64,000 bases of DNA from Cyanophyceae cyanobacterium (GTDB lineage Bacteria; Cyanobacteriota; Cyanobacteriia; Cyanobacteriales; JBHJGN01): positions 8,780 through 72,779 of the forward strand of contig JBHJGN010000049.1 in NCBI GenBank assembly GCA_050331735.1, in the 5' to 3' direction. Below, one piece after another: positions 26,568 through 43,032 of this stretch. The notes under the pieces were generated by a model, which did no database searches, was not told where the DNA came from, and was given only the letters and a program-made list of their open reading frames with translations. Every line of letters starts with the position of its first letter. Position 1 is the first letter of the stretch. A program made the position numbers and the translations under genes.

Positions 26568-28583
26568 TTATTCATAGGCTTTGACAGAGGCTGACAGTTT
26601 CTGTCGCTGTCGCTTGAGCATGGTACTGATGCCAAAACCAGCGAGCATCAGCAGACTAACAACCGCCGAAGGTTCGGGAACAGTAGTGGGTTGAGGGTCA
26701 GAAGGATAAGGGTTGTCCACTAAGTTTGTCAACCCAGAACCATCGGCTTCTACCCCAATTTCAGCGATAAAATCCTGGAAATAGCTGTCTAGAAAGTCTG
26801 CCATTTCCTCATCAGCGGGGGAGCGATCGCTCGGACTATCTGGCACGACCTCTAAGTTATTTAAGGTTGTCCCTGAACCGCTAAACTCTTGTAATTCCCC
26901 GGATGCAGCGTCTAGTTTCGTTAACCAAGTATCAAAAGACCCGACGTTCGTTGCTCCTAAAGATCCCCCGGTGATTCCGGTCGCGTATAGGTTGCCAGCG
27001 TTGTCTGCCGTAATGCCGTAGGCTTGCTCCAGTTCAGCCGTGCCAAACTGCTGGATCCAAGCCTGATTGCCATCGGTATCAAAGAGAGTCGCCCAAGCAT
27101 CGAAAGAGCCAGCATTGTCTCCCTCTAAGCTACTGTTGGTATAGCCGGTGAGGAAAATATTGTCGTCGGCATCGATGAACAGGTCAAAGGGTTCGTCGTC
27201 GCCGGAAGTGCCAAACTGTTGAATCCACTGCTGGTTTCCCAACTCGTCATACTTAATCAGCCAGACATCATAGGAGCCAGCATTATCGCCCCCTAAGTTG
27301 CCCAAAGTCCAGCCGGTCGCATAGACGTTCCCTTCGCTGTCGGTATCCACTCCCCAGGCCCACTCGTAATCCGTCGTACCGAACTGCTGAATCCAGTTTA
27401 AGTTGCCATCGTTATCTAGCTGAGACACCCAGGTATCGTAGAGTCCGGCGTTTTCTCCTTCTAGGTCGCCATAGGTCCAGCCAGTGGCATAAACATTACC
27501 ATCGCTACCAACCGTCACTCCATAGGATTCGTCGTAGTCTTCGACCCCAGGCACATCAGGAGTTCCAAAGAGGGTCAGCCACTGGCGGTTGCCGTTGGTG
27601 TCATATTTGGCGACGATAACATCGTCGGTGGCAATATCTGCCGACGCTTCAACCCTTGTTCCCGAGACGTAGGCATTGCCCTCCTGGTCAACGTCAATGC
27701 TAAAGGTTTGCTCAATGACTTCTTCCCCAAACTGCTCTAGCCACTGCTGATTGCCATCGCCGTCGAATTTACCGATCCAGGCATCGTAGACTTCGGCTTG
27801 CCGGGGGCTGGCCAACTCGCCTTGGGTAATTCCGGTGAGAAAGAAGTTGCCTTGGTCGTCGGTGGCAATGTCGTAAGCGGTGTCGAAGCGGGAACTCCCA
27901 AACTGTTTCGCCCAAAGCTGATTGCCTTGGTTATCGTATTTAGCAACCAGCACATCCCGCAGCCCAGAGTTTTCTTCGACTGCACCATTTGTCCCTCCTG
28001 CTATATAAATATTGCCTTCGGGATCGGTTGCCGTACCGAGACTGAGATCGTAATCTGTTGACCCTAATTGCTGCGCCTGATTCAAGACTGGTCCGGGGGG
28101 GGGAGACTCTCCTTCATATTGAAAGGAGTTACTCTCCAGGTCGAGATTAGACCCTCCGAGAATAAAGCCGACCACATCAGGGACATCCTGTTGCAGATAT
28201 ACGGCTGAACCGACTCCAACCTCTAAAAGTTGGTAATTATTTGAAGTTCCATGAAGCTCAACGGTATCCTCTCCGGCATTAAAGTCGGCAATAAAACCAA
28301 AGTTGTTTAAACCAAAGCTGTCTGGATTCCCGTTCGCGTAATAGGGTTGGGTCCAGTCACCAAGGACAAACGTATCATTCCAGGTTCGGAAAGCCGGGTC
28401 TTCAAAAGCAAGGTCGCCGAGGAAAATATCTACCTGGAGCTCGTTGGGATTAGCAGGCATAGATTGCTCGCCGAGAAAGGTGTCGTTACCAGTTCGACCG
28501 TAGATAATTTGACTAGGCACAAAGCCTGCGGCCACGTCGCTACCTGGATTGTAGGTTTGGACGGTAAATAGTTCTTCTTCCAT
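26568..28583 (-). CDS. CylK/BrtB-like alkylating enzyme (Ca-binding beta-roll + SBBP beta-propeller) with C-terminal PEP-CTERM anchor
   Basis: N-domain IIYGRTGND, VDIFLGD, WNDTFVLGDWTQPYY, DFNAGEDTVELHG; about seven W..QFG(S/T)...D..GN.Y..G.T.G.L...NAG.YD.W repeats; VPEP-TM-basic tail. AAGGAG RBS; in-frame stop upstream of the ATG. CylK likeness is from recalled sequence. Confidence 0.75.
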   Translation of the reverse strand: MEEELFTVQTYNPGSDVAAGFVPSQIIYGRTGNDTFLGEQSMPANPNELQVDIFLGDLAFEDPAFRTWNDTFVLGDWTQPYYANGNPDSFGLNNFGFIADFNAGEDTVELHGTSNNYQLLEVGVGSAVYLQQDVPDVVGFILGGSNLDLESNSFQYEGESPPPGPVLNQAQQLGSTDYDLSLGTATDPEGNIYIAGGTNGAVEENSGLRDVLVAKYDNQGNQLWAKQFGSSRFDTAYDIATDDQGNFFLTGITQGELASPRQAEVYDAWIGKFDGDGNQQWLEQFGEEVIEQTFSIDVDQEGNAYVSGTRVEASADIATDDVIVAKYDTNGNRQWLTLFGTPDVPGVEDYDESYGVTVGSDGNVYATGWTYGDLEGENAGLYDTWVSQLDNDGNLNWIQQFGTTDYEWAWGVDTDSEGNVYATGWTLGNLGGDNAGSYDVWLIKYDELGNQQWIQQFGTSGDDEPFDLFIDADDNIFLTGYTNSSLEGDNAGSFDAWATLFDTDGNQAWIQQFGTAELEQAYGITADNAGNLYATGITGGSLGATNVGSFDTWLTKLDAASGELQEFSGSGTTLNNLEVVPDSPSDRSPADEEMADFLDSYFQDFIAEIGVEADGSGLTNLVDNPYPSDPQPTTVPEPSAVVSLLMLAGFGISTMLKRQRQKLSASVKAYE

Positions 28584-29430
28584 CTTTCGCTCCTTCGTTT
28601 AAATCTGATTAAGAAAAGTCGGTATTTTGGCCAAAAAAATGGGATGAGGCGCTTTTGTGTGGTTTGCTCTTTTAAGCAAAGCCTTAATAATGTTTCAAAT
28701 AACCACAGCAAACTTATCCTGCTTCTCCCCTGAAGCAAATACGCATGGATGCGTTGGTAGCAATCGAAGCTACGGGTGTTGCTGAAGTCGGTTCGTGCCT
28801 CGTTAAGAGTCAGCGCGCTTCTATATATAGTGCTATCTTGAAGTCTTCTTCGCCGTTGGTATCTTCGCGTACAGTCACCAGGGCGGCGATCGCTTTTACT
28901 AGTAGAATCAAACTAAGCAGCGAGCAGCTTAACTGCTAGTTCCGTTAAGCTCAAGCGCTTGAGAATTAGCGGCTCCGGTATCAGGCGAAACTGGTTTCTA
29001 CTATTGCTTACTATCCGCTTATTTAAGCAAGACTAAACTAGCGCCGAATTGCCTAAAAAGACTGGCTCCTTTAGCGTTTTATCAGCACGTCAGCACTAGT
29101 GATGGTGTTTCTAACGACTTGAAGCCAACCTTTAGCTGTTGCCGGACAAAAAAGGTGAAAGAAAGCAGATTAAGCATGATGTTTTTCTCCTGTAATATTG
29201 CATTCGCAGGGTGTTTTTGAAATCCTCAACGAATGGAAATGCAATCTACAGTATTCATAACTTCTATCTCGCTCAGCGCACAAGTCGCTTTTGTCAGGTA
29301 GTTGTTTTTGTTTAGCTTGTTTATACTACTCTATTTATGCGACTTGCCTCTTCAGAGCTTCGCGATAAACTAACAATTACACTGAATTTTTTTTCACGCT
29401 GACTGTCGATTACACTCAAATTTTTCTTAG

Positions 29431-30306
29431 ATGAATAATTACTCTCAACATTCTCGTTTGAGCTGCGTTCTCGATCCTGCCCTCGGTTTGTCCCGCTTTG
29501 GGGTTTATCTGGTGGAAAACCTGGGAGAAACGATGGAATTATGGGTGGGACGAGAATTTTGGAACGTGATTGGCAATCCTAATTTTTACCAACAACGACC
29601 AGAGTTAGTGCTTCCCAAAAAAGCTTTTTCTCAAACTACCCATGAAGAATGTGCTGCTATAGAAGAAACGTTATGGTCTCTTCAGCAGTGGGAAAAACTC
29701 AAAAAGAAAACTGATCTGGCAAGGCTTAATTTGCACTGGATTGGAGATAGTCTACAAGAATCGTATTTGCCTAAAAATATTGCTCTAGAAATATTTTGGC
29801 GCTGGGAATTTTTAGCGCGATCGCTCGATGCTGAACTGAGCCACCATACTGATGAAGTCATGTCTCTTGCTTTTCGAGATACGGCAGCACTTGCTGCCAG
29901 TTTGGGGCCTGCATTCGTGTTAACCTACCAATCCCCGGAGAACGTGGCTCATAACACGCCCCCGGATATTTGCGTTGCTCTAGAAAACTGGGGCATTCCT
30001 TGCCATGCTCTTACCCAGGAGCAAACGATGATTGAAGAGCGAAATTATTTTCGCCAAATTCTGATTCGGAGTGGTTTGACTAAACTTTTTTGGACAAATC
30101 TGCACTTTATCGTTTTACATTTTGTTGCCCCTGCTGTATCTGCCTATTCCGGCTTCAGAGAGGATGAGCCAATTCAAGTATCTACTAATATTTCTACTAG
30201 CAAACCTGAGCGAACACTTATATCCCCAGACGAACTTCTCAAGAATCTAGAGTCAAAAAAATATTCTTGGCAGAACATTGAAGCATTTTGGTATCCGTTA
30301 TCGTGA
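29431..30306 (+). CDS. Hypothetical protein (possible degenerate PIN-like fold)
   Basis: 291-aa open frame in an AT-richer segment; CVLDP near the N-terminus and RDTAALAASL..AFVLT later. Confidence 0.6.
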   Translation: MNNYSQHSRLSCVLDPALGLSRFGVYLVENLGETMELWVGREFWNVIGNPNFYQQRPELVLPKKAFSQTTHEECAAIEETLWSLQQWEKLKKKTDLARLNLHWIGDSLQESYLPKNIALEIFWRWEFLARSLDAELSHHTDEVMSLAFRDTAALAASLGPAFVLTYQSPENVAHNTPPDICVALENWGIPCHALTQEQTMIEERNYFRQILIRSGLTKLFWTNLHFIVLHFVAPAVSAYSGFREDEPIQVSTNISTSKPERTLISPDELLKNLESKKYSWQNIEAFWYPLS

Positions 30307-30618
30307 AGAGTCGCGTTCTTAGCGCATCGATTTAGCTATGTAAATGTAGCGATTAGGTTGTGTTTAATGGAAATAAACAGCTACTAAAGCCTAGTTATTA
30401 ATAATAGCAAATGATAAACTAGTTTCACAAATGCAATTGCTTTAAATTAATTGTTTTACAATTTTTCTTACCTCTTCAGTTTTTCAAAACAAAGCCATAC
30501 TTTTCTCAGGTATTTATCTTACTAAAATAGAAATGACAATGCTATTTTTTAGGTAAAATATGTTTAAACTCCGTGCAAAGTTTTTTAGAAATTATGCTTG
30601 TCTACTTTGTTTAATGCC

Positions 30619-31104
30619 ATGAATGATTCATCCAGTCGAGACACTGCTTGTTTAAAATCGGCGGCTCAACTTTCAAGATCGAGAATTGTTGACGGTTTCC
30701 AGGTTGAAGACTCCCGATTTTTAATTGTCTCCTGCCAGGATATTCCAGAACAACATCAACATATTAGAACTATCGTTTTTGATGATTCTGCTTGTTGTGC
30801 GGTGGTCGATCGTCTTGAAATTGGCAAAAAACATTATTTAGTTGTAGAGGCACAAATAGACTTCGTCCATAATTACTCTAATCTTTCTGAGCTTTTGACA
30901 GACAGAGAGTTGCAGATTGTTGCCTTTGTTGCTCTAGGATGGTCTAACAAGCAGATCGCTAAACGGCTAGAGATTAGCGAGTGGACTGTTTCTACTCACT
31001 TACGGCGGACTTTCATTAAGCTTAATGTAGATAGTCGTGCTGCAATGGTGTATCGCTGTGCTCCTCTTATTCAGGGAATATTGCAAGAACAAGCAGTGTA
31101 TTAA
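30619..31104 (+). CDS. LuxR-family HTH transcriptional regulator (no receiver domain)
   Basis: LTDRELQIVAFVALGWSNKQIAKRLEISEWTVSTHLRRTFIKLNVDSRAAMV; start at ATG 30619 or TTG 30598. Confidence 0.85.
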   Translation: MNDSSSRDTACLKSAAQLSRSRIVDGFQVEDSRFLIVSCQDIPEQHQHIRTIVFDDSACCAVVDRLEIGKKHYLVVEAQIDFVHNYSNLSELLTDRELQIVAFVALGWSNKQIAKRLEISEWTVSTHLRRTFIKLNVDSRAAMVYRCAPLIQGILQEQAVY

Positions 31105-31358: not shown

Positions 31359-32153
31359 TTATTCAGGATATATTGAAGTTAAATTTGTGCTATTTGGTCT
31401 GGCAGTTACTAATAGTTGAGGCATAGAAACGCCACCTCTGAAAATAAAGTCCCGCAAAATCCACCATCCTCTCCAAGTAGCAAACACGCGCAGCGCCGGT
31501 TTGGCTGACGGATAGAGTTGTCTCCAACGGAGAAGGTCAGCGCGAGACAAAAACCAATCATCGCAGCGGTAGAGGTCAACCGAGAATCTTGCTTTCTTAA
31601 GCAGCGCAAACACATCCCCCTGACTAAAGGCGTGGAGGTGATAGGGATCGATATGTCGGGTTTCACCAAGAGGTGCAGAAAGCAACAGATCTCCCTCTGG
31701 AACTAAAAGGTGGTGAATACGCTCGAGGAACTTGTTAGGATGGGGAACGTGTTCTATCGTCTCAAAAGAAACAACAACATCGAACGGCTCTGACCAATTA
31801 AACTGCTCTGCATCGGCGCAAACAAATTCTAGGTTGTCCTCCTGATAGTTCTGCCTAGCATACTGCACCGTCTCTGGACACACATCAACTCCCACTACGG
31901 TCTGTGCACCAGCAAGGCATAATATCTGGCTGCCGTACCCCGTACCGCAGGCAATATCAAGAACTCGTTTTCCTTTCACATAGCGTGCCGCCGTTTTATA
32001 GCGCTCAAAGTGAATATTAAAAATTTTTTGACTAGCCGGATCGTTCTGGGTCTTTTTGGGAATAAAGCGTTCCCAGGTCACGGTGAGAGCCTGGTTGGAG
32101 AGCACTACTGAGTTATACTGGTCTGCTTGTTCTTGGGGGATTTTGTCTTGCAT
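31359..32153 (-). CDS. Class I SAM-dependent methyltransferase (glycan-cluster type)
   Basis: HFERY, VLDIACGTGYG (motif I), FDVVVSFETIEH and YHLH; last co-oriented gene of the BGC operon. Confidence 0.85.
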   Translation of the reverse strand: MQDKIPQEQADQYNSVVLSNQALTVTWERFIPKKTQNDPASQKIFNIHFERYKTAARYVKGKRVLDIACGTGYGSQILCLAGAQTVVGVDVCPETVQYARQNYQEDNLEFVCADAEQFNWSEPFDVVVSFETIEHVPHPNKFLERIHHLLVPEGDLLLSAPLGETRHIDPYHLHAFSQGDVFALLKKARFSVDLYRCDDWFLSRADLLRWRQLYPSAKPALRVFATWRGWWILRDFIFRGGVSMPQLLVTARPNSTNLTSIYPE

Positions 32154-32290: not shown

Positions 32291-33508
32291 TTAATTAAGG
32301 TTGACACGACGATTAGCAGCCAGGCCGTTTAATAAATGCTGATAGTAGTGATGAAGCTTTTGACAGCCTTGCTCGACCGAAAACTGCTTGGCATCTTGCA
32401 ATGCTCGCTGAGTAATGTCTGTAGTGTTGCTGGCTAAAACCCTTTCTAAGCAGTTCGCTAACTCTTCGACGTTATCAGGGGGAGCAAGATAGCCGTTGAC
32501 GCTATCAATTAGATAGTCCGATACGGCACCGCTATTGACCGTGACGACCGGAATGCCGGATGCCATGGCCTCTACTATCGTGAGTCCAAAGGTTTCATAG
32601 GGAGAAGGACTACAGAAAACATCACCGGACGCTAAAACATTCGCCTTCGTTTCTCCGAGCAGAAAACCGGTAAAGTGAATATTAGAAATAGGTGCGGCTA
32701 GGCGTTTTAAGTGTTTAACCACCTCATCAGGACCATCTCCGACAATGAGCAAAGCACAGTTAGGGTGAGATTGTTTGAGGAGGGCAAAGGCTTCGATGAG
32801 CAAATCGACTCGTTTTTCAAAGCCAAGACGACCTAAAAAAAGCAAGACTTGGCGATCCTCACTTCCTAGCCACGGTTCCAAGTGTTTCCGATGCCGACGC
32901 TCTGGAGAATAGGTAGAAATATCAGTTCCGAAGAAAGGAATGACTTCAGTGTTCTGGATGCCCATTGCTTGGCAGCTTTGAGCCGCCGCCTGACTCGGAC
33001 ATACGGTGACATCGAGCTGATGATAGAGATAGCTGGGAAGTCGCAAGCGACTGAACAAACTGCGCAACCACTGCCAGCCAGGATAGGTCTCGGAAAAATT
33101 GTAGACATCCGTATGGTACTCGGCGATGTAGGGAATGTGCTGCGAGTTCGCATAGCGCTGTCCCGGTAAATGCCACGCACTCAACAAAAAAAACCGCTCT
33201 ACGTCTGTTGTTATAATCAAATCCGGCTGATAATCCGCCAGCTTTCGGCTAATCTGGCGAGCGGCGGCTATGGTTGGGACATAGGTAAGTTTGTAGGGCA
33301 GCCAGGGTTTTGAACGGTAGCGTTCAACGGTCAGCTCTGAATCGGCTTCAGGGGATGCCGCTTGCCCATCTGGGGCAAACACCACGACCCGATATCCGTG
33401 CTGGGCCAACCACTGCACTCGCGCCCAGTTAAATAGAGCAGAACCACTCACTTCTGGAGGAAAAGCAGTGACAAGGAAAACAAGAGTATAAACGCGATCG
33501 AGGCTCAT
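32291..33508 (-). CDS. GT4 (GT-B) glycosyltransferase, HglT-like
   Basis: FPPEVSG, RVQWLAQHG, YHTD, FLGRLGFEKR and ETFGLTIVE (EX7E). Start moved to ATG 33508, 34 nt after the PKS stop. Confidence 0.85.
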   Translation of the reverse strand: MSLDRVYTLVFLVTAFPPEVSGSALFNWARVQWLAQHGYRVVVFAPDGQAASPEADSELTVERYRSKPWLPYKLTYVPTIAAARQISRKLADYQPDLIITTDVERFFLLSAWHLPGQRYANSQHIPYIAEYHTDVYNFSETYPGWQWLRSLFSRLRLPSYLYHQLDVTVCPSQAAAQSCQAMGIQNTEVIPFFGTDISTYSPERRHRKHLEPWLGSEDRQVLLFLGRLGFEKRVDLLIEAFALLKQSHPNCALLIVGDGPDEVVKHLKRLAAPISNIHFTGFLLGETKANVLASGDVFCSPSPYETFGLTIVEAMASGIPVVTVNSGAVSDYLIDSVNGYLAPPDNVEELANCLERVLASNTTDITQRALQDAKQFSVEQGCQKLHHYYQHLLNGLAANRRVNLN

Positions 33509-33542
33509 GGCTTGTATAAAAGAAACGTTAACTGATTCAGCT

Positions 33543-36500
33543 TCATATCCTCCTAGCCGCGACTGGAGCCGAAATAAACCCACTGCGGACTAAGTACGAA
33601 AAATAAGTGTCAAGCAAGCGAAAATCGAGAGGAGGGCAATCAATATTAGAGTCAGCTAGAGCAGCCAGCGTTGCTTGACAGCCGATTTTGGGTCTTTTAT
33701 CTTGCTGATTCAGCTCAATATAGGTGAGGTCATCAAGCCAGCGATGCACAAAAAACGGCAGCAGCGGATAGAGGGGATTGTCTCGACTATCGTTGAGCTT
33801 GGCTTGCCAGTTGGAATACGCTTCGCGATCTATGGCATAGCCAAAGAAGCGCATAAACTCGCTCAATTGGCTCCAGTGGAGCGGTGACGGGTTTTGCAGG
33901 TGAAATGCCTGACCAAAAGACTGCTTCTGCTTTGACAAATAGACGATCGCCTGAGCGACGTAATCTACTGGCGACAGATCTAAGAGCACGTCGAGATCTG
34001 CCATACTGCCCATCTGAATACAGCCTTTGATCATGCGGCATAAAAAGCCACTAGTATTCCAAACGCCCGTGCGACTGTGCCCAGAAATCAACGGAGGGCG
34101 GTAGATACACATCGGCAGTCCGCGCTCACCGGCCTTTGTTACCAGCCTTTCCGACACCCACTTACTCTGAGAGTAGCCGAGGTAAATGCCCTCGCTTGGC
34201 ACTACCAAGTCGGCTTCCGTGACCGCTTTGCCATAAAAAGCCGATGACTCAAACACCGCTACGCTGGAAACATGATGAACTGGTTTTATCCTGTCGGTAG
34301 TAGCTAATTTCAGGACTTCTTGAGTTCCGAGAACATTGATCGATTTCAGTCTGGAGTAGGGATAGACATAGCTCAAAAACGCTCCATTGTGGTAGATCGT
34401 CTCGATATGAGCGGCTAAGTGTTGCCACTGGTCGTTAGCCAGACCCAGTTGCGGCTGAGCGAGATCGCCCACCACCGGAACGATTCTCGCCCTGAAATCT
34501 TGCTGCCAGAGAGCGTAGGTGGCCAAATTTTGTTGCAGCCTTAGATAACCGGACTCGGCATCGGCAGTACGCACTAAACAGTAGATGTCGGCTTGAGTTT
34601 GCTGAAGGAGTTCGTAGAGTAAAAAGGCTCCTAAAAAACCGGTGGCTCCGGTTAATAAAACTGCCGTCGGTTCAGTAATCAGCTCAACGGGGTCCGTCCC
34701 CGGAGCAATGGTCCGCTCTAGAGTCGCTTCAGCGTCCAAATCCACCTCATTGACAACCGCCGTCGGTTTTCCCGGTGTTAGCTGCTCGGTTAAGAGGGTC
34801 AAGAGGTTAGCAACGCTCGGCTCCTCGATGAACGCTCGAATCGGTAGCTCCGCCTGGAGCTGAGTTTGCACTGCGTTTCTGAGATCCACCGCCATAAGCG
34901 AGTCGAAGCCCAAATCTTGAAGAGACTGATGGATATCGATCTCAGCGGGGGCTACCTCCAGCAGCTTCGCCACCTGACCTTGAATGTAGGTGGTTAACAG
35001 GTGAGAGCGATCGCCCTCGTCAGCCTCCTGCCACTGGGATAAAATCGACCGCTGGTTTGATGCCGCTGCCTGGGTCGGACTCACTAGTTCAGCTAACAGG
35101 GGTAGCTGAGTCCCAGCGCCAAACTGCTGCTGAAACGCCGACCACTCGAACGGCAGCACCGCCACCTGCGGCTCCAGTCCCAGCACTTTAGCCAGCGCCT
35201 GCAAACCTTGCTCTGGAGCAATCGTGCTGCCCTGGGTTACTTCCCCATAGCGGCTACTGAGCTTCGCTGCCATCCCGCCATCGCTCCACGGTCCCCAGTT
35301 AATGCTTAACCCCGGTAGTCCGAGGAAACAGCGATAGTGGGCTAGCGCATCCAAAAAGGCATTGGCGGCAGCGTAATTGCCTTGACCGGGCGAACCTAGC
35401 ACCGAGGCGGCGGAGGAAAACATCACAAAGAAATCGAGCGGCAGGTGTTGAGTCAACTGATGCAGATTCCAGGCTCCTTCAACCTTCGGTGCTAGCACTC
35501 GACTAAACTGCTGCCAGTCCTGGTGCAGCAGAATTCCATCATCAAGCACTCCCGCCGCATGAATCACCCCACGCAGAGGCGGCAGGGAGGTTTGCATCTC
35601 GTCAAAGAGGGCGTTCATGTCCGAGCGATCGCTAACATCCGCCTGAACCACGCGCACCTCGGCTCCTCTAAGCTGGTTGAGAACCTCCTGAACCGACGGA
35701 GAAGCCCCCCGACGACTGGTGAGTACCAGATGCTGCACTCCCCGCTCTACCAGCCAGCGAGCCACCCTCAAACCTAAAGCCCCTAAGCCCCCCGTGATTA
35801 AATAAGTTCCGTCTGAGCGAAACGGCACGGGGGGCGAATCGCTCAGTTGACGGCGCACCAAACGAGCGACATAAAGCTGTCCTTCCCGACACGCAATCTG
35901 TTCCCCCAGCAAGTCCATCGCTGCCAACAGCATTTCCCCCTCATCAGCGGACGGTTCGGGAGCTAAATCGATCGTGCCTCCCCAGAGTTCAGGGTGTTCT
36001 AGGGCAATAACTTTTCCCAGTCCCCCCAGCGGCGCTGGCGAGAGTTCTGGCTGAGTCCCCACTGGGACCGCTCTCGTCACCAACCATAGCTGAGCAGCAG
36101 TGAAGCGACCGTGTTTGACCAATGCCTGCACTAAATAAAGGACGCACCCGCAGCCCCAGGTTTTTGGCTGCTCCCCAGACCAAATCGGTAAATTTTCCAG
36201 ATATTCCTGGCCAGTCCACAGGTAAACAATGCTGAGCGGTTCTTGACTAACTGCCGATAGCTCTTGAAACAACCGCTCAAAATCTTCTCGCCGAGACGGA
36301 TTGAGATAATAAATACCGTTCTGGTGCTGATAGGTTTTTCCCGGATAAACCAGAAAACACCGTTGTCCCTGCTGAGCAATGGCTGGTCCGGTTCCGGCAT
36401 CATCAGCGAAAATGAGCCAGTTGCTCCCGTCTCGTTCTGAAGCTACTGGACGCGGCTGAGGCTGCCACTCTATCTGATAAAACCAGTCTTGAAGCGATGC

Positions 36501-39290
36501 CGTTTGCTGTTGCTCGCTCAGCAAATTTAGCAGCTTAGGCAACACTTTCGCCTCATCCGCTGATAGTTGGCCGGTCGCGAGCAGTTGCTGTTCGATTGAG
36601 CGGCGTTCGTCTGTGGGGAGCGCTAGCGAGGAAGCCTGACGATGACCATTCGCCTCTTTAAACCAGTAGCGCTGTCGCTGAAAGGGATACGTTGGCAGCA
36701 CGACGCGACAACGGTGATAGTCTCGATCGAAGCCCATCCAGTCTACCGCGACTCCCCCCACATAGAGCTGCGCTAAACTTTGCAGAAGCGTTTGCCAAGG
36801 CGAACGCCTCGGCTCTAAACTAGCCAACCACCTCAATGGGGTGTAAGTGTTGCCGTCATTTTCGACCGCTAAACGTCCCATTCCCGTCAAAATTGGCTTG
36901 GGACCGCATTCTAAACCGATATCAGCTTGGGCTTGCAGCACCTTGATGCCGTCCGCAAATCTCACCGGCTGGCGCAGGTGACGACACCAGTATTGCGGAG
37001 TGGCAATTTCTGCGGTGGCCAAGGCTCCAGTCACGTTGGAGATCAGCTTAACGGTCGGAGGGAAGTAGGTGACTTCCGAGGCCACCGCCTCGAAATCCGC
37101 CAGCATCGGCTCCATCAACGGAGAATGAAAGGCATGGGAAACCGTCAGGGGTTTCGTCTTGATTCCCTGGGCGGTGAGGGTTGCTCTGACGGCCTCAACG
37201 GACTTGCTCCGGCCAGAAATAACCACGCTACGGGGTCCATTGAGCGCCGCGAGGGCAACTTGAGGGTAGGGAGCGATCGCTGCGGCCACCTGCTCGGCCC
37301 CGGCCATCACCGCTACCATCGCTCCATTAGCAGGAAGCGCCTGCATCAGCCGACCCCGAGCAGCAATCAGCTTCAAGCCATCTTCAAGGCTGAATACTCC
37401 GGCAAGACAGGCCGCGACGTATTCCCCAACGCTGTGACCCATGACTATGGCGGGTTTGATGCCCCAAGCCATCCACATCTGCGCGAGGGCGTATTCCAGG
37501 GCAAAGAGAGCGGGTTGCGTGTAGGCGGTCTCGTCGAGCAGGGCGGAGGGTTGTTGAGGATACAGCAGCTCCAGTAAAGCATAGTCTAAGTAAGGGGCGA
37601 GGATAGTAGCACAGCGGTCGAGGGCGGCGCGGAAGGTGGGTTGAGTTTCGTAGAGCTGCTGACCCATACCGACGTATTGAGACCCCTGTCCGGTGAATAA
37701 AAAGGCAATTTTGGGACGCTTTTTGCTGGTGAGATGACCGCTAGCTAGCTCCGCTCCCGTTGCAAACGCTTCGAGAGCCGTGCGTAGCTGGGCCGCATCT
37801 GTGGCGGGGACCGCTAAGCGATGGTTAAAGTGCGCTCGCCCGGTATTGGCCGTAAAGCACACATCGGCGATCGCCTCCTCCTGAGCGACAACGGCATAGC
37901 GCTGCGCTAATTCTTTCAGAGCGTCTGCACTCTTAGCAGAAAGGGTCAGCAGATGCAGCGGACGATCACAGTGACCTGCCTTCCGCCGATCAACCTTATT
38001 CGCGCTGGCGGGAACTTCCGGTGCCGCGGCTAACACGGCATGGCAATTTGTGCCTCCAAAGCCAAAGGCGCTGATGCCTGCTATCCGCTCGGGAGTATTC
38101 CAACGTTGATTCTCGGTGGGAATGCGAAAGGAAGCTTCTAGGGTAATGTACGGATTGAGCTGCTGAAGGTGGAGATGAGGCGGAATCTCTCGATGCTGAA
38201 GCGCCAGCACCACCTTAATCAGGCTCGCCAGCCCTGCTGCTGCTTCCAGATGCCCAATATTGGTCTTCACCGAGCCAATCCAGCAGGGCTGATCCGCTTG
38301 GCGACCTTCCCGCAGGGCAGCCTGAATGAATTCCGCTTCGATCGGATCTCCTAAAGCGGTTCCGGTGCCGTGAGCTTCCACGTAGCTAATCTGCGCGGGA
38401 GCCACGCCCGCGCTGTCTAAAGCTTGACGAATCACTCGCTGCTGCGAAGGACCGTTGGGAGCCGTCAACCCATTGCTCAACCCATCCTGATTGACTGCTG
38501 AGCCGCGAATCACGGCCCGAACGGTGTCTCCATCTCTGAGGGCATCCGAGAGACGCTTGAGGGCGATCGCCCCGCCGCCTTCTCCCCGCACATAGCCATC
38601 GGCCCGCGCGTCAAAGGTCTTACAGCGACCGTCACTTGCCATCATGCGGGCTTGAGAATAATTAATCGTTGGCTCCGGCGACAGCATCAGGCTCACTCCC
38701 CCCACTAAGCAGAGCTCCGACTCTCCCTGACGCAGACTTTGACAAGCGACGTGTACCGCCACCAACGACGAGGAGCAGGCCGTTTCTACCACCATGCTGG
38801 GTCCGCGCAGATTCAGCAGATAGGACAGCCGATTCGCTGCGATGCACAGAGTATTCCCGGTGCCATCGTAGGCACTAATTTGGTTCAAATCCTGCGCCAG
38901 CAAGCGACCGTAATCGTAATTCCCAATGGCAATAAATACTCCTGTTTGACTGCCAGACAGCGTTTGAGGCGCAATTCCCGCATCTTCTAAACACTCCCAG
39001 GCCACCTCTAGCATCAGGCGCTGCTGCGGGTCGAGGCGCTCTGCTTCGCGGGGAGAAATATTAAAAAAACCAGGGTCGAACTGATCTACCTGCTCCAGAA
39101 ATCCGCCCCAGCGCGTATTCATCTTTCCAGGAGTGGCTGGTTCCGAAGCATAGAAAGCATCGACATCCCAGCGATTTCCTGGCACTTCCGTAATGGCATC
39201 GCCACCGCTCTGCAAAAGTTCCCAGAAAGCTTTGGGGTTGCTCGCTCCCGGAAAGCGACAGCCCATTCCAATAATTGCTATAGGTTCCAC
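33543..39290 (-). CDS. Type I PKS, single module KS-AT-KR-ACP with terminal thioester reductase (R) domain
   Basis: KS: TACSSS, EAHGTGT, NIGHLE. AT: GHSVG and HAFH (malonyl). KR: TGGLGALG, HAAGVLDD (B-type), YAAAN. ACP: GFDSL. R: TGATGFLG and YSQSK. No DH or ER motifs. GTG start with AGGAG RBS. Confidence 0.93.
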   Translation of the reverse strand: MEPIAIIGMGCRFPGASNPKAFWELLQSGGDAITEVPGNRWDVDAFYASEPATPGKMNTRWGGFLEQVDQFDPGFFNISPREAERLDPQQRLMLEVAWECLEDAGIAPQTLSGSQTGVFIAIGNYDYGRLLAQDLNQISAYDGTGNTLCIAANRLSYLLNLRGPSMVVETACSSSLVAVHVACQSLRQGESELCLVGGVSLMLSPEPTINYSQARMMASDGRCKTFDARADGYVRGEGGGAIALKRLSDALRDGDTVRAVIRGSAVNQDGLSNGLTAPNGPSQQRVIRQALDSAGVAPAQISYVEAHGTGTALGDPIEAEFIQAALREGRQADQPCWIGSVKTNIGHLEAAAGLASLIKVVLALQHREIPPHLHLQQLNPYITLEASFRIPTENQRWNTPERIAGISAFGFGGTNCHAVLAAAPEVPASANKVDRRKAGHCDRPLHLLTLSAKSADALKELAQRYAVVAQEEAIADVCFTANTGRAHFNHRLAVPATDAAQLRTALEAFATGAELASGHLTSKKRPKIAFLFTGQGSQYVGMGQQLYETQPTFRAALDRCATILAPYLDYALLELLYPQQPSALLDETAYTQPALFALEYALAQMWMAWGIKPAIVMGHSVGEYVAACLAGVFSLEDGLKLIAARGRLMQALPANGAMVAVMAGAEQVAAAIAPYPQVALAALNGPRSVVISGRSKSVEAVRATLTAQGIKTKPLTVSHAFHSPLMEPMLADFEAVASEVTYFPPTVKLISNVTGALATAEIATPQYWCRHLRQPVRFADGIKVLQAQADIGLECGPKPILTGMGRLAVENDGNTYTPLRWLASLEPRRSPWQTLLQSLAQLYVGGVAVDWMGFDRDYHRCRVVLPTYPFQRQRYWFKEANGHRQASSLALPTDERRSIEQQLLATGQLSADEAKVLPKLLNLLSEQQQTASLQDWFYQIEWQPQPRPVASERDGSNWLIFADDAGTGPAIAQQGQRCFLVYPGKTYQHQNGIYYLNPSRREDFERLFQELSAVSQEPLSIVYLWTGQEYLENLPIWSGEQPKTWGCGCVLYLVQALVKHGRFTAAQLWLVTRAVPVGTQPELSPAPLGGLGKVIALEHPELWGGTIDLAPEPSADEGEMLLAAMDLLGEQIACREGQLYVARLVRRQLSDSPPVPFRSDGTYLITGGLGALGLRVARWLVERGVQHLVLTSRRGASPSVQEVLNQLRGAEVRVVQADVSDRSDMNALFDEMQTSLPPLRGVIHAAGVLDDGILLHQDWQQFSRVLAPKVEGAWNLHQLTQHLPLDFFVMFSSAASVLGSPGQGNYAAANAFLDALAHYRCFLGLPGLSINWGPWSDGGMAAKLSSRYGEVTQGSTIAPEQGLQALAKVLGLEPQVAVLPFEWSAFQQQFGAGTQLPLLAELVSPTQAAASNQRSILSQWQEADEGDRSHLLTTYIQGQVAKLLEVAPAEIDIHQSLQDLGFDSLMAVDLRNAVQTQLQAELPIRAFIEEPSVANLLTLLTEQLTPGKPTAVVNEVDLDAEATLERTIAPGTDPVELITEPTAVLLTGATGFLGAFLLYELLQQTQADIYCLVRTADAESGYLRLQQNLATYALWQQDFRARIVPVVGDLAQPQLGLANDQWQHLAAHIETIYHNGAFLSYVYPYSRLKSINVLGTQEVLKLATTDRIKPVHHVSSVAVFESSAFYGKAVTEADLVVPSEGIYLGYSQSKWVSERLVTKAGERGLPMCIYRPPLISGHSRTGVWNTSGFLCRMIKGCIQMGSMADLDVLLDLSPVDYVAQAIVYLSKQKQSFGQAFHLQNPSPLHWSQLSEFMRFFGYAIDREAYSNWQAKLNDSRDNPLYPLLPFFVHRWLDDLTYIELNQQDKRPKIGCQATLAALADSNIDCPPLDFRLLDTYFSYLVRSGFISAPVAARRI

Positions 39291-39466: not shown

Positions 39467-40816
39467 CTACTGATGCATAGAGCGAGAAAACTGCTTAAAC
39501 GCCTTAACGTTGTTTTGCAGAGCTTGCTCAATCGAGCCTCCAGCAGCCATCAGGCGCATCTCTCGATTGACAGCCCACAGGTAGTCAACCCCGTCGAAGA
39601 AGCGGCGCAGATCGCTCAGCAGACGCTGATGATACTTAAGATTGATGTGAAATCCTTCGTGTTCTTGACACAAACATCTTTCTAGCCAGTACAGTGAATC
39701 TTGGGCAGAGAGATTAAAGAGCGGAGACTGAAGTAGCTGATAAAACGAGAGCATAAAGGGAGCATCATGTTTGCAGATAGCCGGCAGTCCACCCGAAAGA
39801 CCATTGAGACTCACCTTTTGCACCCGATAGATAGTGAGGTTAGCAACGAATTTTTCGTAGGCCGTCGGTTTAGAGAAGTCTTTATAGAGCTCTTTCCCAA
39901 TCAGTTGAGAGGTGGTGGTGTGGAAAGATTCATCTAAAAGATGATAGTAGGATACCGCTGTTGGCACCGGAATAAACTCGCCAGCCTTCTCCAATTTTCG
40001 GTAGTACTGAACGTAGCGGTATTCATAATTTTTGAGCAGCAGGTTAGCGATATAGCGCGTGACGTAGAACAGGCAGGCTAAGAAGGGGGAACTGCCGCAG
40101 TTTAACGTGAACAACTGCTGTACTGAGCGGGGGGCTAATTGTCCGAGCAACCCCGTTGTTTGGGCTGGCAGCTTTTCCCCTTTAAGGTCCAGTTCTCGCA
40201 GGTACTGAGAATAACAATGGCCGGGTCTTAGCATTTGAGTCGTGAAGAAGCGAAAGGTAGATTCCTGGAGCGACTCGAATGGCTGCTGAGGCGCTATTCC
40301 TCTAGCAATCTGCTCGGTTCGTCTACCGTGACTAGCGGTTTTTAAGTCAGATCTTCCGAGTAGGGCTCGTTTTGTTTTCGATCCAATTCTTTGAAAGGCA
40401 TGAATATGGGAGTATTCTTGCTCGGTTTCTAGCTGGAGCTCCTGGCAGAGGGTATCGTACCCGCCCAAGCTGGCGAAAACACCCGCCGTTACCTGATTGT
40501 AAAGCACTGCATTGGCTTCGGTTGCCGCCGTTTGGCTGTATTGCCTCATCCAGTAGAGATGGTTGAGTGCTCGTTGTTGTGAGGGGGAGGCTTCTACGTA
40601 TAGCGGAGTGCCATAGAGGGTAGAAAGTTCCGGAGGACTCCAGTAATCATTAGCGTTATGAGCGTAGCTAAAGCTTTTCTCCAGCTCCTCTATTCTTTCG
40701 GTGTAGTCGGAATCAACGTTGCGCTGATAGGTAATTTCCGTTAGTTTGACGTGTTTTTTGACTCCCTGAGAGGAAGATGACAATTGGTTTTGAGGAGAGA
40801 CAAGAGTATTGAGCAT
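39467..40816 (-). CDS. CylC-family dimetal-carboxylate halogenase (AurF-like fold)
   Basis: SxLYGTPLY, ALNHLYW, ATEANAVLYN, ETEQEYSH (ExxExxH) and YYHLLDESFH (HxxDExxH); sits directly after FAAL and ACP as in cyl/col-type clusters. Confidence 0.82.
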   Translation of the reverse strand: MLNTLVSPQNQLSSSSQGVKKHVKLTEITYQRNVDSDYTERIEELEKSFSYAHNANDYWSPPELSTLYGTPLYVEASPSQQRALNHLYWMRQYSQTAATEANAVLYNQVTAGVFASLGGYDTLCQELQLETEQEYSHIHAFQRIGSKTKRALLGRSDLKTASHGRRTEQIARGIAPQQPFESLQESTFRFFTTQMLRPGHCYSQYLRELDLKGEKLPAQTTGLLGQLAPRSVQQLFTLNCGSSPFLACLFYVTRYIANLLLKNYEYRYVQYYRKLEKAGEFIPVPTAVSYYHLLDESFHTTTSQLIGKELYKDFSKPTAYEKFVANLTIYRVQKVSLNGLSGGLPAICKHDAPFMLSFYQLLQSPLFNLSAQDSLYWLERCLCQEHEGFHINLKYHQRLLSDLRRFFDGVDYLWAVNREMRLMAAGGSIEQALQNNVKAFKQFSRSMHQ

Positions 40817-40861
40817 TAATTTTTCCTGACAGATAAAGAATCTGGTGACGATGGTGGTAGT

Positions 40862-41164
40862 TTATGATTGGTCTTGGCAGTCTTGAGCAATGCGCTCAGC
40901 TAACGCCTCAATGGTGGGGTAGTTATATAGCAGAGTCGGATTGAGTTTCCGCTCGAGCCAGTCTTCCAAATCTCCAGAGAGTTCAACAGCCTCCGCAGAA
41001 TCAAGACCGTATTGCTCAAACGGAAGCGTTACATCAACCTGTTCTGGCTCTTCTTCTAGCAGTTCGGCTAAATAGTTCACGATCCAGGTTTGAATGTCTT
41101 CGGGTGAAGGAGATTTCTGGGTGGGGACTGAAACCGTTGATGGGGCGTTATTCGGTTGATTCAT
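40862..41164 (-). CDS. Stand-alone acyl carrier protein
   Basis: FEQYGLDSAEAV phosphopantetheine site and PTLLYNYPTIEALA. Confidence 0.92.
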   Translation of the reverse strand: MNQPNNAPSTVSVPTQKSPSPEDIQTWIVNYLAELLEEEPEQVDVTLPFEQYGLDSAEAVELSGDLEDWLERKLNPTLLYNYPTIEALAERIAQDCQDQS

Positions 41165-41205
41165 CAGGTTTTTTTAGTAGCAGTGCAGGTTGGGATTGAA
41201 GTTGC

Positions 41206-43032
41206 TTAGTGCTTCGATCCGGGGCTGGGGGAGAGTTGCCGGAATACCGCCTCGACCTCAGCTTGCAAATGCAAAAACTCGGCTTTATTCTGAGGATTTT
41301 CGCTCCAGTCCTCAACAACATTCAGAGTGCCGTTGAGAAATCCAGAGAGACAGGCGTACCGCTGAATTTTGCCGCTGGTTGTCCTTGGAATACTGCCAGT
41401 TTTCACGAGGACGGTGGCGTAAACCTTCAGATCGTGCTGCACGTTGACAGCTCGACGAATACTATCAACGACGTCTTTCACGTTGAGCTTGCGGAGGTAG
41501 CTGCGCTTCACTTCCTGCACAATGACCAACCGTTCTGTCCCTTTAATGGCTGCGGCAACCGCTGCCCCACAGTTGGGTCGTAGGGCGGGATGACTGTTCT
41601 CAACCGTTAGCTCAATATCTTGGGGATAGTGGTTTTGCCCGCGAATAATGATGACATCCTTAATTCTGCCAGTGATGAATAGCTCGTCATTTCGTAAAAA
41701 TCCGAGGTCTCCAGTCCGCAGAAACGGTCCTGCTCCCGTGGCTAGATGAGCCTGAAAATCCCGCTGGGTTGCGTCGGGGCGTTGCCAATAGCCCTGGGCC
41801 ACGCTCGGTCCCGCGACCCAGATTTCTCCCACTTGGTTTGCCGGACTCGGCATCAACGTGTCGGGGTCAACGATCAGGAGGTTTTGGTCCGTTAAGCTCC
41901 GACCGCAGCCAACGAGGGCTTGGCTCTCTGGGGCAGTGCTTAGTACTACTTGGTCTTGCTCGAGGGCCGCTCTCTCTACCGAGCAAATGACGGGCGGCGC
42001 CGTTTTTTCTCCGCCAGAGACGATCAAAGTCGCCTCTGCCATGCCATAGCAGGGATAAAAAGCTTCTTTGCGGAAGCCGCAGGGCGCAAACGTAGTCGCA
42101 AAGTTTTCTAGGGTTTGAGCGCGAACGGGTTCAGCCCCAACAAACGCTACCTCCCAACTGCTCAGGTCCAGACTTGCGCGCTGCTGAGCAGTAATTTTAC
42201 GCACACAGTAATCGTAAGCAAAATTAGGAGCACCGCTGATCGTTGCTTGAAGGCGAGAGATAGCCTGAAGCCACCGGAGCGGTTTTTGCAGAAAATCTAC
42301 GGACGACATCAGGGTGACGGGAAATCCGGCGTAGAGGGGCTGCAGTAATCCGCCGATCAAGCCCATATCGTGGTAAGGCGGCAGCCAGATTACTCCCTGA
42401 GTCGAGGGTGAATGAGCAAAGTACTGTTCGATGAGGTTGAGGTTGTGCATGAGGTTGCGGTGACTCACCATCACCCCCTTTGGCGTTCCCGTTGAACCCG
42501 AGGTGTATTGCAAAAACGCAATCTCGGATTTGCGGGGTTTTGCTTCCCAAGTTCCTGCCTCGTGGGGGGTGAGGTGAGCTGTCGTCAGCCAACGCAGTTT
42601 CGCTAACTCTGAATTTTCGGGAAACCACCGCTCTATACTGGTAAATAATGAGGGTGTGGTGAGAGCAACAACCGCCTGAGCATCGCCGAGAATGGCCTCC
42701 AGCCTAGCTAAGTTTTGATTGCGGCGAGGCGGATAAGCCGGAGTAGCGATCGCTCCGGCATACAAACACCCAAAGAAAGCCGCAATAAACTCTAACCCAG
42801 ACGGATACAGCAGCAAGACTGGTTTTCCGGTCGCGCCGGCTTCGAGAAGAGCGGCGGCGATCGCTCGAGCCTGTTCGTCTAATTCTCCATAGGTCAGTTT
42901 CCCAACCTCTTCTCCCTGCTGCAAAAATACATAAGTTTTTTGGTCGGGCTGACTCTGCGCTCGAGCGCGCAGTACGTCTACTAAACTCCCGACGGGCTTG
43001 CCTGGGCGCGAATAGTCGCAATAAGCCGTCAT
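41206..43032 (-). CDS. Fatty acyl-AMP ligase (FAAL)
   Basis: LQYTSGSTGTPKG, WLPPYHDMGLIG, PCYGMAEATL, FAAL insertion before LVGCG, RTGDLG and RTTSGKIQR. Confidence 0.93.
   Translation of the reverse strand: MTAYCDYSRPGKPVGSLVDVLRARAQSQPDQKTYVFLQQGEEVGKLTYGELDEQARAIAAALLEAGATGKPVLLLYPSGLEFIAAFFGCLYAGAIATPAYPPRRNQNLARLEAILGDAQAVVALTTPSLFTSIERWFPENSELAKLRWLTTAHLTPHEAGTWEAKPRKSEIAFLQYTSGSTGTPKGVMVSHRNLMHNLNLIEQYFAHSPSTQGVIWLPPYHDMGLIGGLLQPLYAGFPVTLMSSVDFLQKPLRWLQAISRLQATISGAPNFAYDYCVRKITAQQRASLDLSSWEVAFVGAEPVRAQTLENFATTFAPCGFRKEAFYPCYGMAEATLIVSGGEKTAPPVICSVERAALEQDQVVLSTAPESQALVGCGRSLTDQNLLIVDPDTLMPSPANQVGEIWVAGPSVAQGYWQRPDATQRDFQAHLATGAGPFLRTGDLGFLRNDELFITGRIKDVIIIRGQNHYPQDIELTVENSHPALRPNCGAAVAAAIKGTERLVIVQEVKRSYLRKLNVKDVVDSIRRAVNVQHDLKVYATVLVKTGSIPRTTSGKIQRYACLSGFLNGTLNVVEDWSENPQNKAEFLHLQAEVEAVFRQLSPSPGSKH

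Follow-up and report, generated by a model that had tools for sequence, protein, structure and literature searches.

A compact cyanobacterial gene cluster for a putative chlorinated glycolipid, with a CylK-family enzyme bearing a PEP-CTERM-like tail

Organization of the Locus and the Biosynthetic Operon

The DNA analysed in this work (the window) is a stretch of 64,000 nt from a Cyanophyceae cyanobacterium (assembly GCA_050331735.1, contig JBHJGN010000049.1, positions 8,780 to 72,779, forward strand), whose genome is 99.98% complete and has a GC content of 0.495. The locus under study (window positions 26568-43032) bears a run of biosynthetic genes, including one for a CylC-type halogenase, and a gene for an alkyl-halide-utilising enzyme of the CylK family. 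An earlier note on this DNA (the original prediction) had read the locus as a candidate new pathway for a halogenated alkyl-diol glycolipid with a surface-anchored alkylating enzyme. With the use of Pfam and NCBIfam profiles for domain calls, we confirmed nine open reading frames (ORFs) at the predicted coordinates; the gene and domain calls held as well, with strong Pfam scores except for the AurF match of the halogenase. The six biosynthetic genes form a single minus-strand run with short gaps (41 bp between the first and second genes, 45 bp between the second and third), and the whole block amounts to an operon of about 12 kb plus the CylK gene:

41206..43032, minus strand: fatty acyl-AMP ligase (FAAL) of 608 aa, at the head of the operon; matches to AMP-binding (245 bits) and AMP-dom_DIP2-like
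40862..41164, minus strand: stand-alone acyl carrier protein (ACP), 100 aa; PP-binding (58.6 bits), GLDSA serine motif
39467..40816, minus strand: CylC-type dimetal (diiron) carboxylate halogenase, 449 aa; two signature motifs
33543..39290, minus strand: single-module type I polyketide synthase (PKS), 1915 aa; ketosynthase (KS), acyltransferase (AT), ketoreductase (KR), ACP and reductase (R) domains in this order, by Pfam
32291..33583, minus strand: GT4 glycosyltransferase, 430 aa as listed; Glycos_transf_1 (134 bits), Glyco_transf_4 (61 bits)
31359..32153, minus strand: class I S-adenosylmethionine-dependent methyltransferase (MT), 264 aa; Methyltransf_11 (76 bits)
26568..28583, minus strand: alkyl-halide-utilising enzyme of the CylK family (671 aa); a Ca-binding-type domain at the N-terminus, then a beta-propeller; R30, E352 and Y382
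26571..26681, minus strand: PEP-CTERM-like tail of the CylK homolog; V635-PEPS, a hydrophobic helix, KRQRQK and 9 further residues

The best NCBIfam matches of the FAAL were fatty-acid--AMP ligase models, all under their curated cut-offs, and the protein is 62-65% identical to the FAALs of related clusters; for the ACP, the corresponding values are 57-65%. The third gene product bears the motifs ExxQExxH (E130-T-E-Q-E-Y-S-H137) and HxxDExxH (H292-L-L-D-E-S-F-H299). Biochemical work on NocO/CylC published in 2025 gives QExxH and HxxDExxH as the motifs of these enzymes, which act on fatty acyl chains bound to ACP (PMC12101540), and a 2026 preprint uses ExxQExxH plus HxxDExxH as an annotation rule for the halogenases, the first motif separating them from AurF (10.64898/2026.01.20.700248). 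In the CylC family signature, Gln stands where AurF has Asp. The window halogenase is 46-65% identical to the CylC homologs adjoining CylK homologs elsewhere, and its comparison with the PDB sequences gave no match up to E=1.

All domains of the PKS were readily recognized (KS 337, AT 206, KR 249, PP-binding 51 and, for the R domain, NAD_binding_4 234 bits). The KS motifs ETACSSS, HGTGT and NIGH are intact, so that the Cys-His-His set is complete. The AT bears GHSVG and HAFH, the latter being the malonyl-specific motif, and the KR bears YAAAN and LDD, the B-type marker. The serine of the ACP domain is present in GFDSL, and the R domain possesses the glycine-rich GATGFLG and YSQSK (YxxxK). Full-length homologs of this PKS with 55-60% identity were found in G001, G003 and L037 (here and below, such labels stand for genomes and loci used in the comparison). 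For the GT4, the real start is probably M26 at position 33508, because the homologs align from residue ~23; its homologs with 51-69% identity lie 3′ of the PKS in L011, L021, L022, L032, L037, L038, L044 and L049. Homologs of the MT (46-60% identity) are found directly upstream of a CylK homolog in L011, L033, L035, L037, L038, L040 and L049.

As had been predicted, the cluster lacks a resorcinol-forming enzyme: no type III PKS exceeded the cut-off in the cluster or in the genome, where the best match to PF02797 (Chal_sti_synt_C) reached 21.4 bits vs. a cut-off of 27, while DarAB was not searched for. In the absence of a type III PKS above the cut-off, a monoalkylresorcinol nucleophile is unlikely.

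A second CylC homolog, 46-50% identical, has its gene at another genomic site (L072, 6273-7544). The gene set around it (L072 825-8392, G000:C11) runs KASIII, sulfotransferase, P450, sulfotransferase, a gene of unknown function, CylC and fatty-acid-hydroxylase; in composition it is similar to the single class labelled “P450/sulfotransferase” in the 2021 survey of such clusters, and it could represent a chlorosulfolipid-like pathway.

The CylK Homolog

The propeller protein matched the CylK chains of the PDB over both domains (phmmer, E 8.8e-139 to 8.5e-136), four stretches of the match covering chain residues 92-659. Judged by its sequence, it is a full two-domain CylK homolog and more than an SBBP propeller. 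It begins about 67 residues later than the solved chain. To map the catalytic residues, we searched residues 283-417 again on their own and counted along chain 7ron_A. This gave the equivalences of Arg105, Asp440 and Tyr473 of CylK to R30, E352 and Y382 of the window protein, respectively. Mutagenesis has implicated Arg105, Tyr473 and Asp440 of CylK in halide binding and nucleophile activation (PMC8916777). In our alignment of CylK homologs, the Arg and Tyr are invariant (23/23) and Glu is the usual third residue; R30, E352 and Y382 are all invariant in alignment A1. Glu in place of Asp440 is also present in NglO (PMC10849952) and BrtB (PMC8916777). We considered the residue at the Asp440 position as a predictor of the nucleophile and rejected it, since Glu is common across all gene contexts.

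In the AlphaFold2 (AF2) model of the window protein (18 homologs, mean predicted local distance difference test score 66), the propeller (166-570) was predicted with confidence, and the N-terminal domain and the tail with low confidence. The CylC homolog is encoded 10.9 kb from the CylK gene in the same block, and a CylC gene adjoins CylK in 10 of the 18 genome loci described below. The CylC/CylK logic on which the original prediction was built is upheld.

An 874-aa ORF at G000:C39:90647-90973 (L002) weakly resembles the CylK homolog (E 1.8e-6, 36%), the likeness being confined to the N-terminal domain of the latter; the ORF lies ~10 kb from a DevBC-like pair at C39:100895-103283.

Comparison with the Nostochloroside Pathway and Other Known Systems

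The closest precedent is the ngl (formerly pks3) cluster of Nostoc punctiforme ATCC 29133, which directs the synthesis of nostochlorosides, chlorinated 6-O-methyl-gulose glycolipids (Glasser et al., Nat Chem 2024, PMC10849952). It had been chosen for study because it combines CylC and CylK homologs without a resorcinol synthase. Deletion of nglO led to the accumulation of monomers, and the purified truncated NglO converted the monomer to oligomers of up to eight units, in which a hydroxyl displaces the chloride to form an ether (PMC10849952). The proposal that a hydroxyl could be the nucleophile, with oligomeric glycolipids as the outcome, agrees with what was shown experimentally for nostochlorosides and NglO (PMC10849952). 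The claim of a candidate new pathway is not supported: ngl is a published 2024 precedent (PMC10849952), and clusters combining FAAL, ACP, CylC and a type I PKS were a named category already in 2021 (Eusebio et al., BMC Genomics, PMC8406957).

To compare the sequences, we used the cluster of G265, judged to be ngl-like from its gene content, and not the N. punctiforme proteins themselves. The order in G265 is FAAL, ACP, CylC, PKS (KS-AT-KR-ACP), second PKS, TubC_N docking protein, short-chain dehydrogenase/reductase (SDR), then a GT28/monogalactosyldiacylglycerol-synthase-like glycosyltransferase, UDP-galactopyranose mutase (GLF), Methyltransf_23 methyltransferase, major facilitator superfamily (MFS) transporter and CylK. 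The window cluster thus shares with the ngl type the front end FAAL-ACP-CylC, the first KS-AT-KR-ACP module, genes for glycosylation and methylation, and a CylK homolog with Arg, Tyr and Glu conserved in the absence of a resorcinol synthase. The identity to the G265 proteins is 62% for FAAL, 51% for ACP, 52% for CylC and 57% for the PKS, but only 39% for CylK, which belongs to a different clade. In a survey of 400 other cyanobacterial genomes, five matches included the CylK N-terminal-domain residues, and these were found in four genomes, one of which is G265.

The differences concern the later steps. The ngl cluster is about 36 kb long and possesses three PKSs and no thioester reductase (R) or thioesterase (TE) domain, the proposed terminator being NglG, which combines a TubC-type docking domain with a putative aldolase domain (PMC10849952). 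In contrast, the window cluster has a single PKS module with a fused R domain for reductive release. The ngl product is an odd C21 vicinal-diol lipid, its cluster contains a sugar epimerase gene, and NglO ends in an RTX domain (PMC10849952), whereas the window CylK homolog ends in a PEP-CTERM-like tail. No NglG-like (TubC_N), SDR, GLF or MFS gene was found by Pfam in the window cluster, the neighbouring genes being scanned by NCBIfam only; likewise, Pfam revealed no epimerase or mutase in the cluster, and NCBIfam named none among the flanking genes. The window GT4 and MT gave no match in the G265 region (tblastn, E<1e-8). These data allow us to conclude that the cluster is a simpler, compact and widespread, as yet uncharacterised relative of the nostochloroside pathway and not a wholly new kind of pathway.

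With CylK itself (7RON/7FH6, Braffman et al., eLife 2022, PMC8916777), the window protein shares the two-domain architecture, the equivalents of Arg105 and Tyr473, and a CylC halogenase encoded nearby. CylK, however, alkylates a resorcinol from the type III PKS CylI, with formation of C-C bonds (PMC8916777), whereas no type III PKS above the cut-off accompanies the window protein; CylK has Asp440 and Glu374 and lacks a C-terminal tail, while the window protein is tailed and has Glu352 and, in a column of our own alignment unchecked against CylK, a Gln at the presumed Glu374 position. CylK requires its Ca2+-binding sites, and homologs of CylI accompany only 10 of 53 candidate CylKs (PMC8916777). 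BrtB, which we likened to the window protein by description and not by the brt sequence, is a CylK-family enzyme that uses the alkyl chloride to form C-O bonds on a glycosylated lipid with the same Glu base, but its substrate is a dialkylresorcinol glycoside from DarAB-type enzymes and its nucleophile is a carboxylate (PMC8916777).

The “Type I PKS” class of the 2021 survey (chlorosphaerolactylate, columbamide, microginin and puwainaphycin-like clusters) resembles the window in having FAAL and ACP upstream of CylC, with a type I PKS lying downstream; its products are lactylates, amides or lipopeptides, and it was not described with a glycosyltransferase or a CylK homolog, the word “glycosyltransferase” being absent from the main text (PMC8406957). 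The literature that we found on CylC/FAAL glycolipids or on CylC with thioester reductase contained, in the portions available, no description of this architecture.

A functional likeness, drawn from the description of the pathway only, links the window cluster to the synthesis of heterocyst glycolipids, where a PKS-made long-chain alcohol is glycosylated. Heterocyst glycolipids carry a 1,3-diol head, as a KR with reductive release would give here, but unlike the pathway proposed for the window cluster, theirs includes no halogenation and no CylK step.

Recurrence of the Cluster in Other Genomes and Metagenomes

At E<=1e-60, we found 602 CylK homologs, from metagenomes and from a large number of filamentous and pleurocapsalean cyanobacteria. 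Our genome scan, with one genome per species, gave 18 loci with CylK matches, and three of them, all in metagenome-assembled genomes (MAGs), combine the gene set of the window with an adjacent CylK homolog. The best case is a Coleofasciculus MAG (L023+L011), where FAAL-ACP-CylC-PKS-GT4-MT-CylK are all co-oriented and the CylK gene starts 73 bp past the end of the MT match; the identities are 65% (FAAL), 57% (ACP), 63% (CylC), 57-60% (PKS, full-length), 64% (GT4), 60% (MT) and 47% (CylK). In a Coleofasciculaceae MAG and a Waterburya MAG, homologs of FAAL, ACP, CylC, PKS and GT4 lie beside a divergently oriented CylK gene (56-60%), without an MT of the window type. In G001, G002, L044 and L054, as in the window, CylK is divergent or separately transcribed, and G167 and G373 possess CylK-like sequences of 46-47% identity.

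In the metagenomes, we found 23 loci that encode a full-length CylK homolog. At a threshold of at least 40% identity in the flanking DNA, at least one of GT4, MT, PKS-R or CylC was present at 11 of these 23 loci, at 7 of the 10 with 9 kb or more of DNA to one side of it (two of them, L049 and L050, being near-duplicates), and at all four of the complete PEP-tailed loci. The original prediction had named the failure of the propeller gene to accompany the operon elsewhere as a finding that would speak against it; the repeated co-occurrence, in three MAGs and seven of ten long metagenome loci, is the opposite outcome. No type III PKS was found in any compact-cluster relative examined.

In a maximum-likelihood tree of 23 CylK homologs, which left out L014 (partial, within a 2243-aa ORF) and L020 (Bacteroidetes, 26%), the four compact-cluster proteins form one clade (99/98); the ngl-like pair (100/99) and the short Fischerella/Nostoc proteins encoded beside CylC (100/100) group apart from it. 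The end of the operon is variable: a stand-alone KS follows GT4 in place of the MT in G001 (behind a Methyltransf_23 gene and with a KASIII gene), in L044 (together with a FabA-like gene) and in L032 (alone). The hybrid locus L056 (1-11875) bears an NglG-like TubC_N docking protein, an SDR, GT4 and MT of the window type, three Methyltransf_23 genes and an RTX-tailed CylK, and thereby bridges the compact architecture and the ngl-like one. CylK paralogs in tandem arrays were also seen in some cyanobacterial genomes and metagenome contigs, with three copies in L013 and L039 and two each in L045, L048 and L051.

The Low-GC Insert between the MT and CylK Genes

The two genes are 2775 bp apart in the window, a spacing that accommodates two plus-strand genes outside the conserved cluster:

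29431..31104, plus strand: low-GC insert with two genes
29431-30306, plus strand: orphan ORF, 291 aa, GC 0.43; without a Pfam or NCBIfam family
30598-31104, plus strand: LuxR/GerE-type helix-turn-helix protein, 168 aa, GC 0.40; GerE 60.6 bits

The two had been described as a regulator-like pair. This description fits the LuxR/GerE gene but not the orphan, for which no family was found; the related loci contain no homolog of either gene, and the orphan is present only once in the genome. The stretch reads as an insertion, and it may or may not regulate the cluster. An assignment of the orphan to the “LIC12162 family” was considered (ESM Atlas feature match 0.91, 162 shared features) and dropped, as the structures gave a TM-score of <0.4; we have left the protein as unknown.

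The PEP-CTERM-like Tail and the Cellular Location of the CylK Homolog

When the last 60 residues of the CylK homolog were scanned alone, the tail scored 20.9 bits with the NCBIfam model TIGR02595 (PEP_CTERM; cut-off 16), but its score with Pfam PF07589, 13.7 bits, was under the cut-off of 20.7. The AF2 model has a helix at 640-670, with low confidence, and no match to HemolysinCabind (RTX) was found in the protein. A regular expression applied to the best 120 of the 602 CylK homologs revealed a PEP-like tail in 19 of these 120. In 18 tail-bearing homologs, 48-58% identical to the window protein, P636-E637-P638 is invariant; the preservation of P-E-P at such identity speaks for selection on the motif, beyond mere membrane anchoring. 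Leptolyngbya sp. FACHB-261 and Oscillatoria sp. FACHB-1407 are among the carriers of PEP-tailed homologs. At least 13 changes of the PEP label are needed on a tree of the core region (FastTree); this count rests on regular-expression tail classes and may be inflated by fragments. The C-terminal modules of sister CylK proteins are RTX repeats (188 bits in L004) and Big_9 or cadherin-like domains.

The N-terminus tells a different story. The CylK homolog starts with MEEELFTVQTYNPGSD, directly in the conserved domain, and a stop codon lies 5 codons upstream; as judged by eye, there is no signal peptide on the window protein or on any of the PEP-tailed homologs (19/19), which likewise begin within the conserved N-terminal domain. 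Among the 25 PEP-CTERM-like ORFs of the genome, the CylK homolog is the only one without a signal-like start by eye, a crude script having called 8 of the 25 signal-less, 7 of which plainly have a signal on inspection. The genome contains two exosortase genes, with PF09721 scores of 185.8 and 150.5 bits, both above the cut-off. The enzyme is probably held at the membrane by its C-terminal PEP-CTERM-like helix. The data hint at an extracytoplasmic role, but a tail anchor facing the cytoplasm fits them equally well. The claims that the enzyme is surface-anchored and that the coupling takes place outside the cell find no support, given the lack of a signal peptide and the upstream stop. A conserved PEP-CTERM-like tail on an enzyme without a signal peptide is odd and unexplained, and we found no literature joining CylK with PEP-CTERM.

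Two other genes of the window touch on this subject. A 562-aa PEP-CTERM protein with a signal-like start is encoded at 1400-3088 (minus strand), and the gene at 47649-48446 (plus strand) specifies an HpsJ-like B protein, which exceeded the cut-off with 292 bits; related HpsJ-like models are linked by NCBIfam to cyanoexosortases.

DevBCA-like Exporter Genes in Related Loci

DevBCA exports heterocyst glycolipids (PMC6161253). DevBCA-like genes, i.e., those for an HlyD-family protein and an FtsX/MacB-type permease, in part with an ABC ATPase gene alongside (three of five loci), were found beside CylK homologs in five related loci:

L004, 5533-8993: DevBCA-like genes, with the ABC ATPase gene
L011, 14555-18012: DevBCA-like genes, with the ABC ATPase gene
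L037, 14568-15776: close relative of L011, only HlyD within its available DNA
L054, 123-3289: DevBCA-like genes, with the ABC ATPase gene
L012, 13415-15880: DevBCA-like genes

The cluster-linked HlyD proteins are 71-72% identical to one another. No DevBCA set adjoins the window cluster; six paralogous sets are present elsewhere in the genome, and these are at most 52% (HlyD) and 56% (FtsX) identical to the cluster-linked ones. Large RTX-repeat proteins are encoded 3′ of CylK in L011 (12118-14271, 717 aa, directly after) and in L049 (13870-17655, 1261 aa, about 2 kb away).

Proposed Pathway and Alternative Explanations

From the gene content and the sequence comparisons, we propose that the locus is a compact cluster for a chlorinated alkyl-diol-type glycolipid whose alkyl chloride would be consumed by the CylK-family enzyme, likely giving ether-linked dimers or oligomers; we put the probability of this reading at about 0.6. 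The pathway may proceed as follows. The FAAL would adenylate a free fatty acid and load it onto the stand-alone ACP, and the CylC-type diiron halogenase would chlorinate an unactivated carbon of the ACP-bound chain. The PKS module would then add one malonate, with the KR reducing the beta-keto group to a beta-hydroxyl, and the terminal R domain would release the chain reductively as a 3-hydroxy aldehyde or a 1,3-diol. A sugar would be added by the GT4, and the MT would O-methylate a hydroxyl of the sugar or of the lipid. Finally, the CylK homolog would bind the C-Cl group via Arg30 and Tyr382, with Glu352 as the base, and a nucleophile would displace the chloride, most likely the hydroxyl of a second glycolipid molecule, as with NglO, to yield ether-linked dimers or oligomers. 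The presence of every domain and the intactness of the catalytic motifs, as seen by Pfam and motif reading, argue for this pathway.

Several points weigh against the proposal. The halogenase scored 25.2 bits with Pfam AurF, under the gathering cut-off of 29.6, and the N-terminal domain that supplies Arg30 has low confidence in the AF2 model. The Glu base, present in most homologs whatever their context, is uninformative on the nucleophile. Since the GT4 and MT have no detectable similarity to the ngl-like enzymes, the identity of the sugar and the site of methylation are not transferable from nostochlorosides, and if the MT caps the 3-OH, this would block the favoured hydroxyl nucleophile. As judged from the sequence, both an aldehyde and an alcohol are conceivable as the end point of the R domain. 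Because the insert separates it from the operon, the CylK gene needs its own promoter, so that co-regulation is assumed, and the sequencing runs containing the stretch include no RNA run but only the DNA run X1, which may be the source of the assembly itself.

The same monomer would meet another fate if the CylK homolog acted like BrtB, free fatty-acid carboxylates displacing the chloride to give fatty-acid esters and not ether oligomers. BrtB is a proven O-alkylating member of the family that uses a carboxylate as its nucleophile and carries Glu in place of Asp440 (PMC8916777), a residue that the window protein has as well, and fatty-acid esters of nostochloroside A do exist in N. punctiforme. 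These esters, however, are not NglO products but are attributed to an unidentified acyltransferase (PMC10849952), and a Glu common to most homologs does not discriminate; moreover, BrtB has Arg at the Glu374 position (PMC8916777), where the window protein has Gln (EVIEQ) and no homolog has Arg, in a column unchecked against CylK. We therefore regard the formation of such esters as unlikely. As to a cyclophane- or bartoloside-type reaction, in which the CylK homolog would alkylate a resorcinol made elsewhere in the genome, it has in its favour that the closest solved relative is the C-C bond-forming CylK. It appears extremely improbable, with no Chal_sti_synt_C match over the cut-off in the genome (DarA/DarB homologs were not part of that search), no type III PKS in the compact-cluster relatives examined, and just the above-mentioned fraction of candidate CylKs clustering with a CylI homolog (PMC8916777).

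The insert raises the question of whether the CylK homolog has been decoupled from the operon, such that the end product is a stable chlorinated glycolipid and the halogenation is not cryptic. The opposite-strand genes in the 2775-bp low-GC spacing are compatible with this, and FAAL-ACP-CylC-PKS clusters commonly yield chlorinated end products that undergo no CylK-type processing (PMC8406957). Yet the CylK ORF is intact, its three catalytic residues and its tail are conserved, and divergent or separate transcription of CylK is found in the four other cases listed above, which makes decoupling very unlikely. A further alternative concerns the place of the reaction: the enzyme may act outside the cytoplasmic membrane, grafting or cross-linking the chlorinated glycolipid, once exported, into the envelope or sheath, where it would form a polyether layer or be joined to polysaccharide or protein, with the tail serving for exosortase sorting. 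The tail score with TIGR02595, the invariant P-E-P and the two exosortase genes are in line with this, as are the RTX, Big_9 or cadherin-type modules of sister enzymes, which are typical of secreted proteins, the DevBCA-like exporter genes and RTX proteins adjoining related clusters, and the Ca2+-binding sites needed by CylK (PMC8916777). Nevertheless, a signal peptide is missing from all 19 PEP-tailed proteins, whereas the other 24 PEP-CTERM-like ORFs of the genome all have one by eye, and no export route could be identified; the window cluster has no DevBCA set beside it, and those of the genome reach no more than 52% (HlyD) and 56% (FtsX) identity to the cluster-linked ones; CylK and truncated NglO work in vitro as soluble enzymes (PMC8916777, PMC10849952). 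On balance, an extracytoplasmic enzyme seems rather unlikely.

In its boldest form, and with no better prospects in our opinion, this idea would make the PEP-tailed CylK enzymes envelope polymerases, which stitch an exported chlorinated 1,3-diol glycolipid into a covalent, ether-linked lipid layer of the envelope or sheath by a signal-peptide-free PEP-CTERM/exosortase route. If true, this would represent a cross-linked counterpart of the heterocyst glycolipid layer in non-heterocystous, mat-forming cyanobacteria, with export in relatives by the cluster-linked DevBCA-like pump, and a PEP-CTERM/exosortase route without a classical signal peptide would itself be new.

Returning to the ether-linked glycolipid as the preferred product, we find the original prediction largely right on the chemistry, wrong on the novelty and unproven on the location. 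To our knowledge, CylK-type enzymes are the only ones known to use secondary alkyl chlorides as electrophiles for C-C, ester and ether bonds, and only three have been characterised; the compact cluster defines a fourth, recurrent context for them. Because it comprises one PKS module with textbook reductive release in ~12 kb plus one gene, heterologous expression and reconstitution should be far easier than for ngl, and with a predictable monomer it is a good target for mining. The interchangeable C-terminal modules and the exporter genes in relatives raise the question of whether cryptic halogenation serves the formation of polymeric envelope lipids outside the cell.

Flanking Genes and Other Features of the Window

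Outside the cluster, the following features border the locus:

25462-26532, flank: murG
43033..43964, no strand: intergenic region 5′ of the FAAL gene, 932 bp; presumed promoter region of the operon
43965-45023, flank: ABC ATPase with a TOBE_2 domain, by Pfam/NCBIfam

The identity of murG was confirmed, but its adjacency is not kept in related loci and has no evident meaning. The gene on the other flank, which had been called futC-like, encodes an ATPase that matches many NCBIfam importer ATPase models, all under their cut-offs, the ferric one included, so that only the ABC ATPase with TOBE_2 can be retained. Consensus scans for promoters and terminators over 26000-44500 were uninformative (15 and 21 sites vs. 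14.6 and 21.6 in shuffled sequences).

For three co-oriented ORFs of 464, 151 and 234 aa at 21925-24501 (plus strand), NCBIfam gave no family. The 259-aa ORF at 24588-25367 (minus strand), which has a signal-like start, has neither a Pfam nor an NCBIfam family and possesses a 46% identical homolog in L014. Near the end of the window, a separate biosynthetic locus encodes a 1901-aa nonribosomal peptide synthetase of the condensation-adenylation type, as called by NCBIfam (58153-63858, minus strand).

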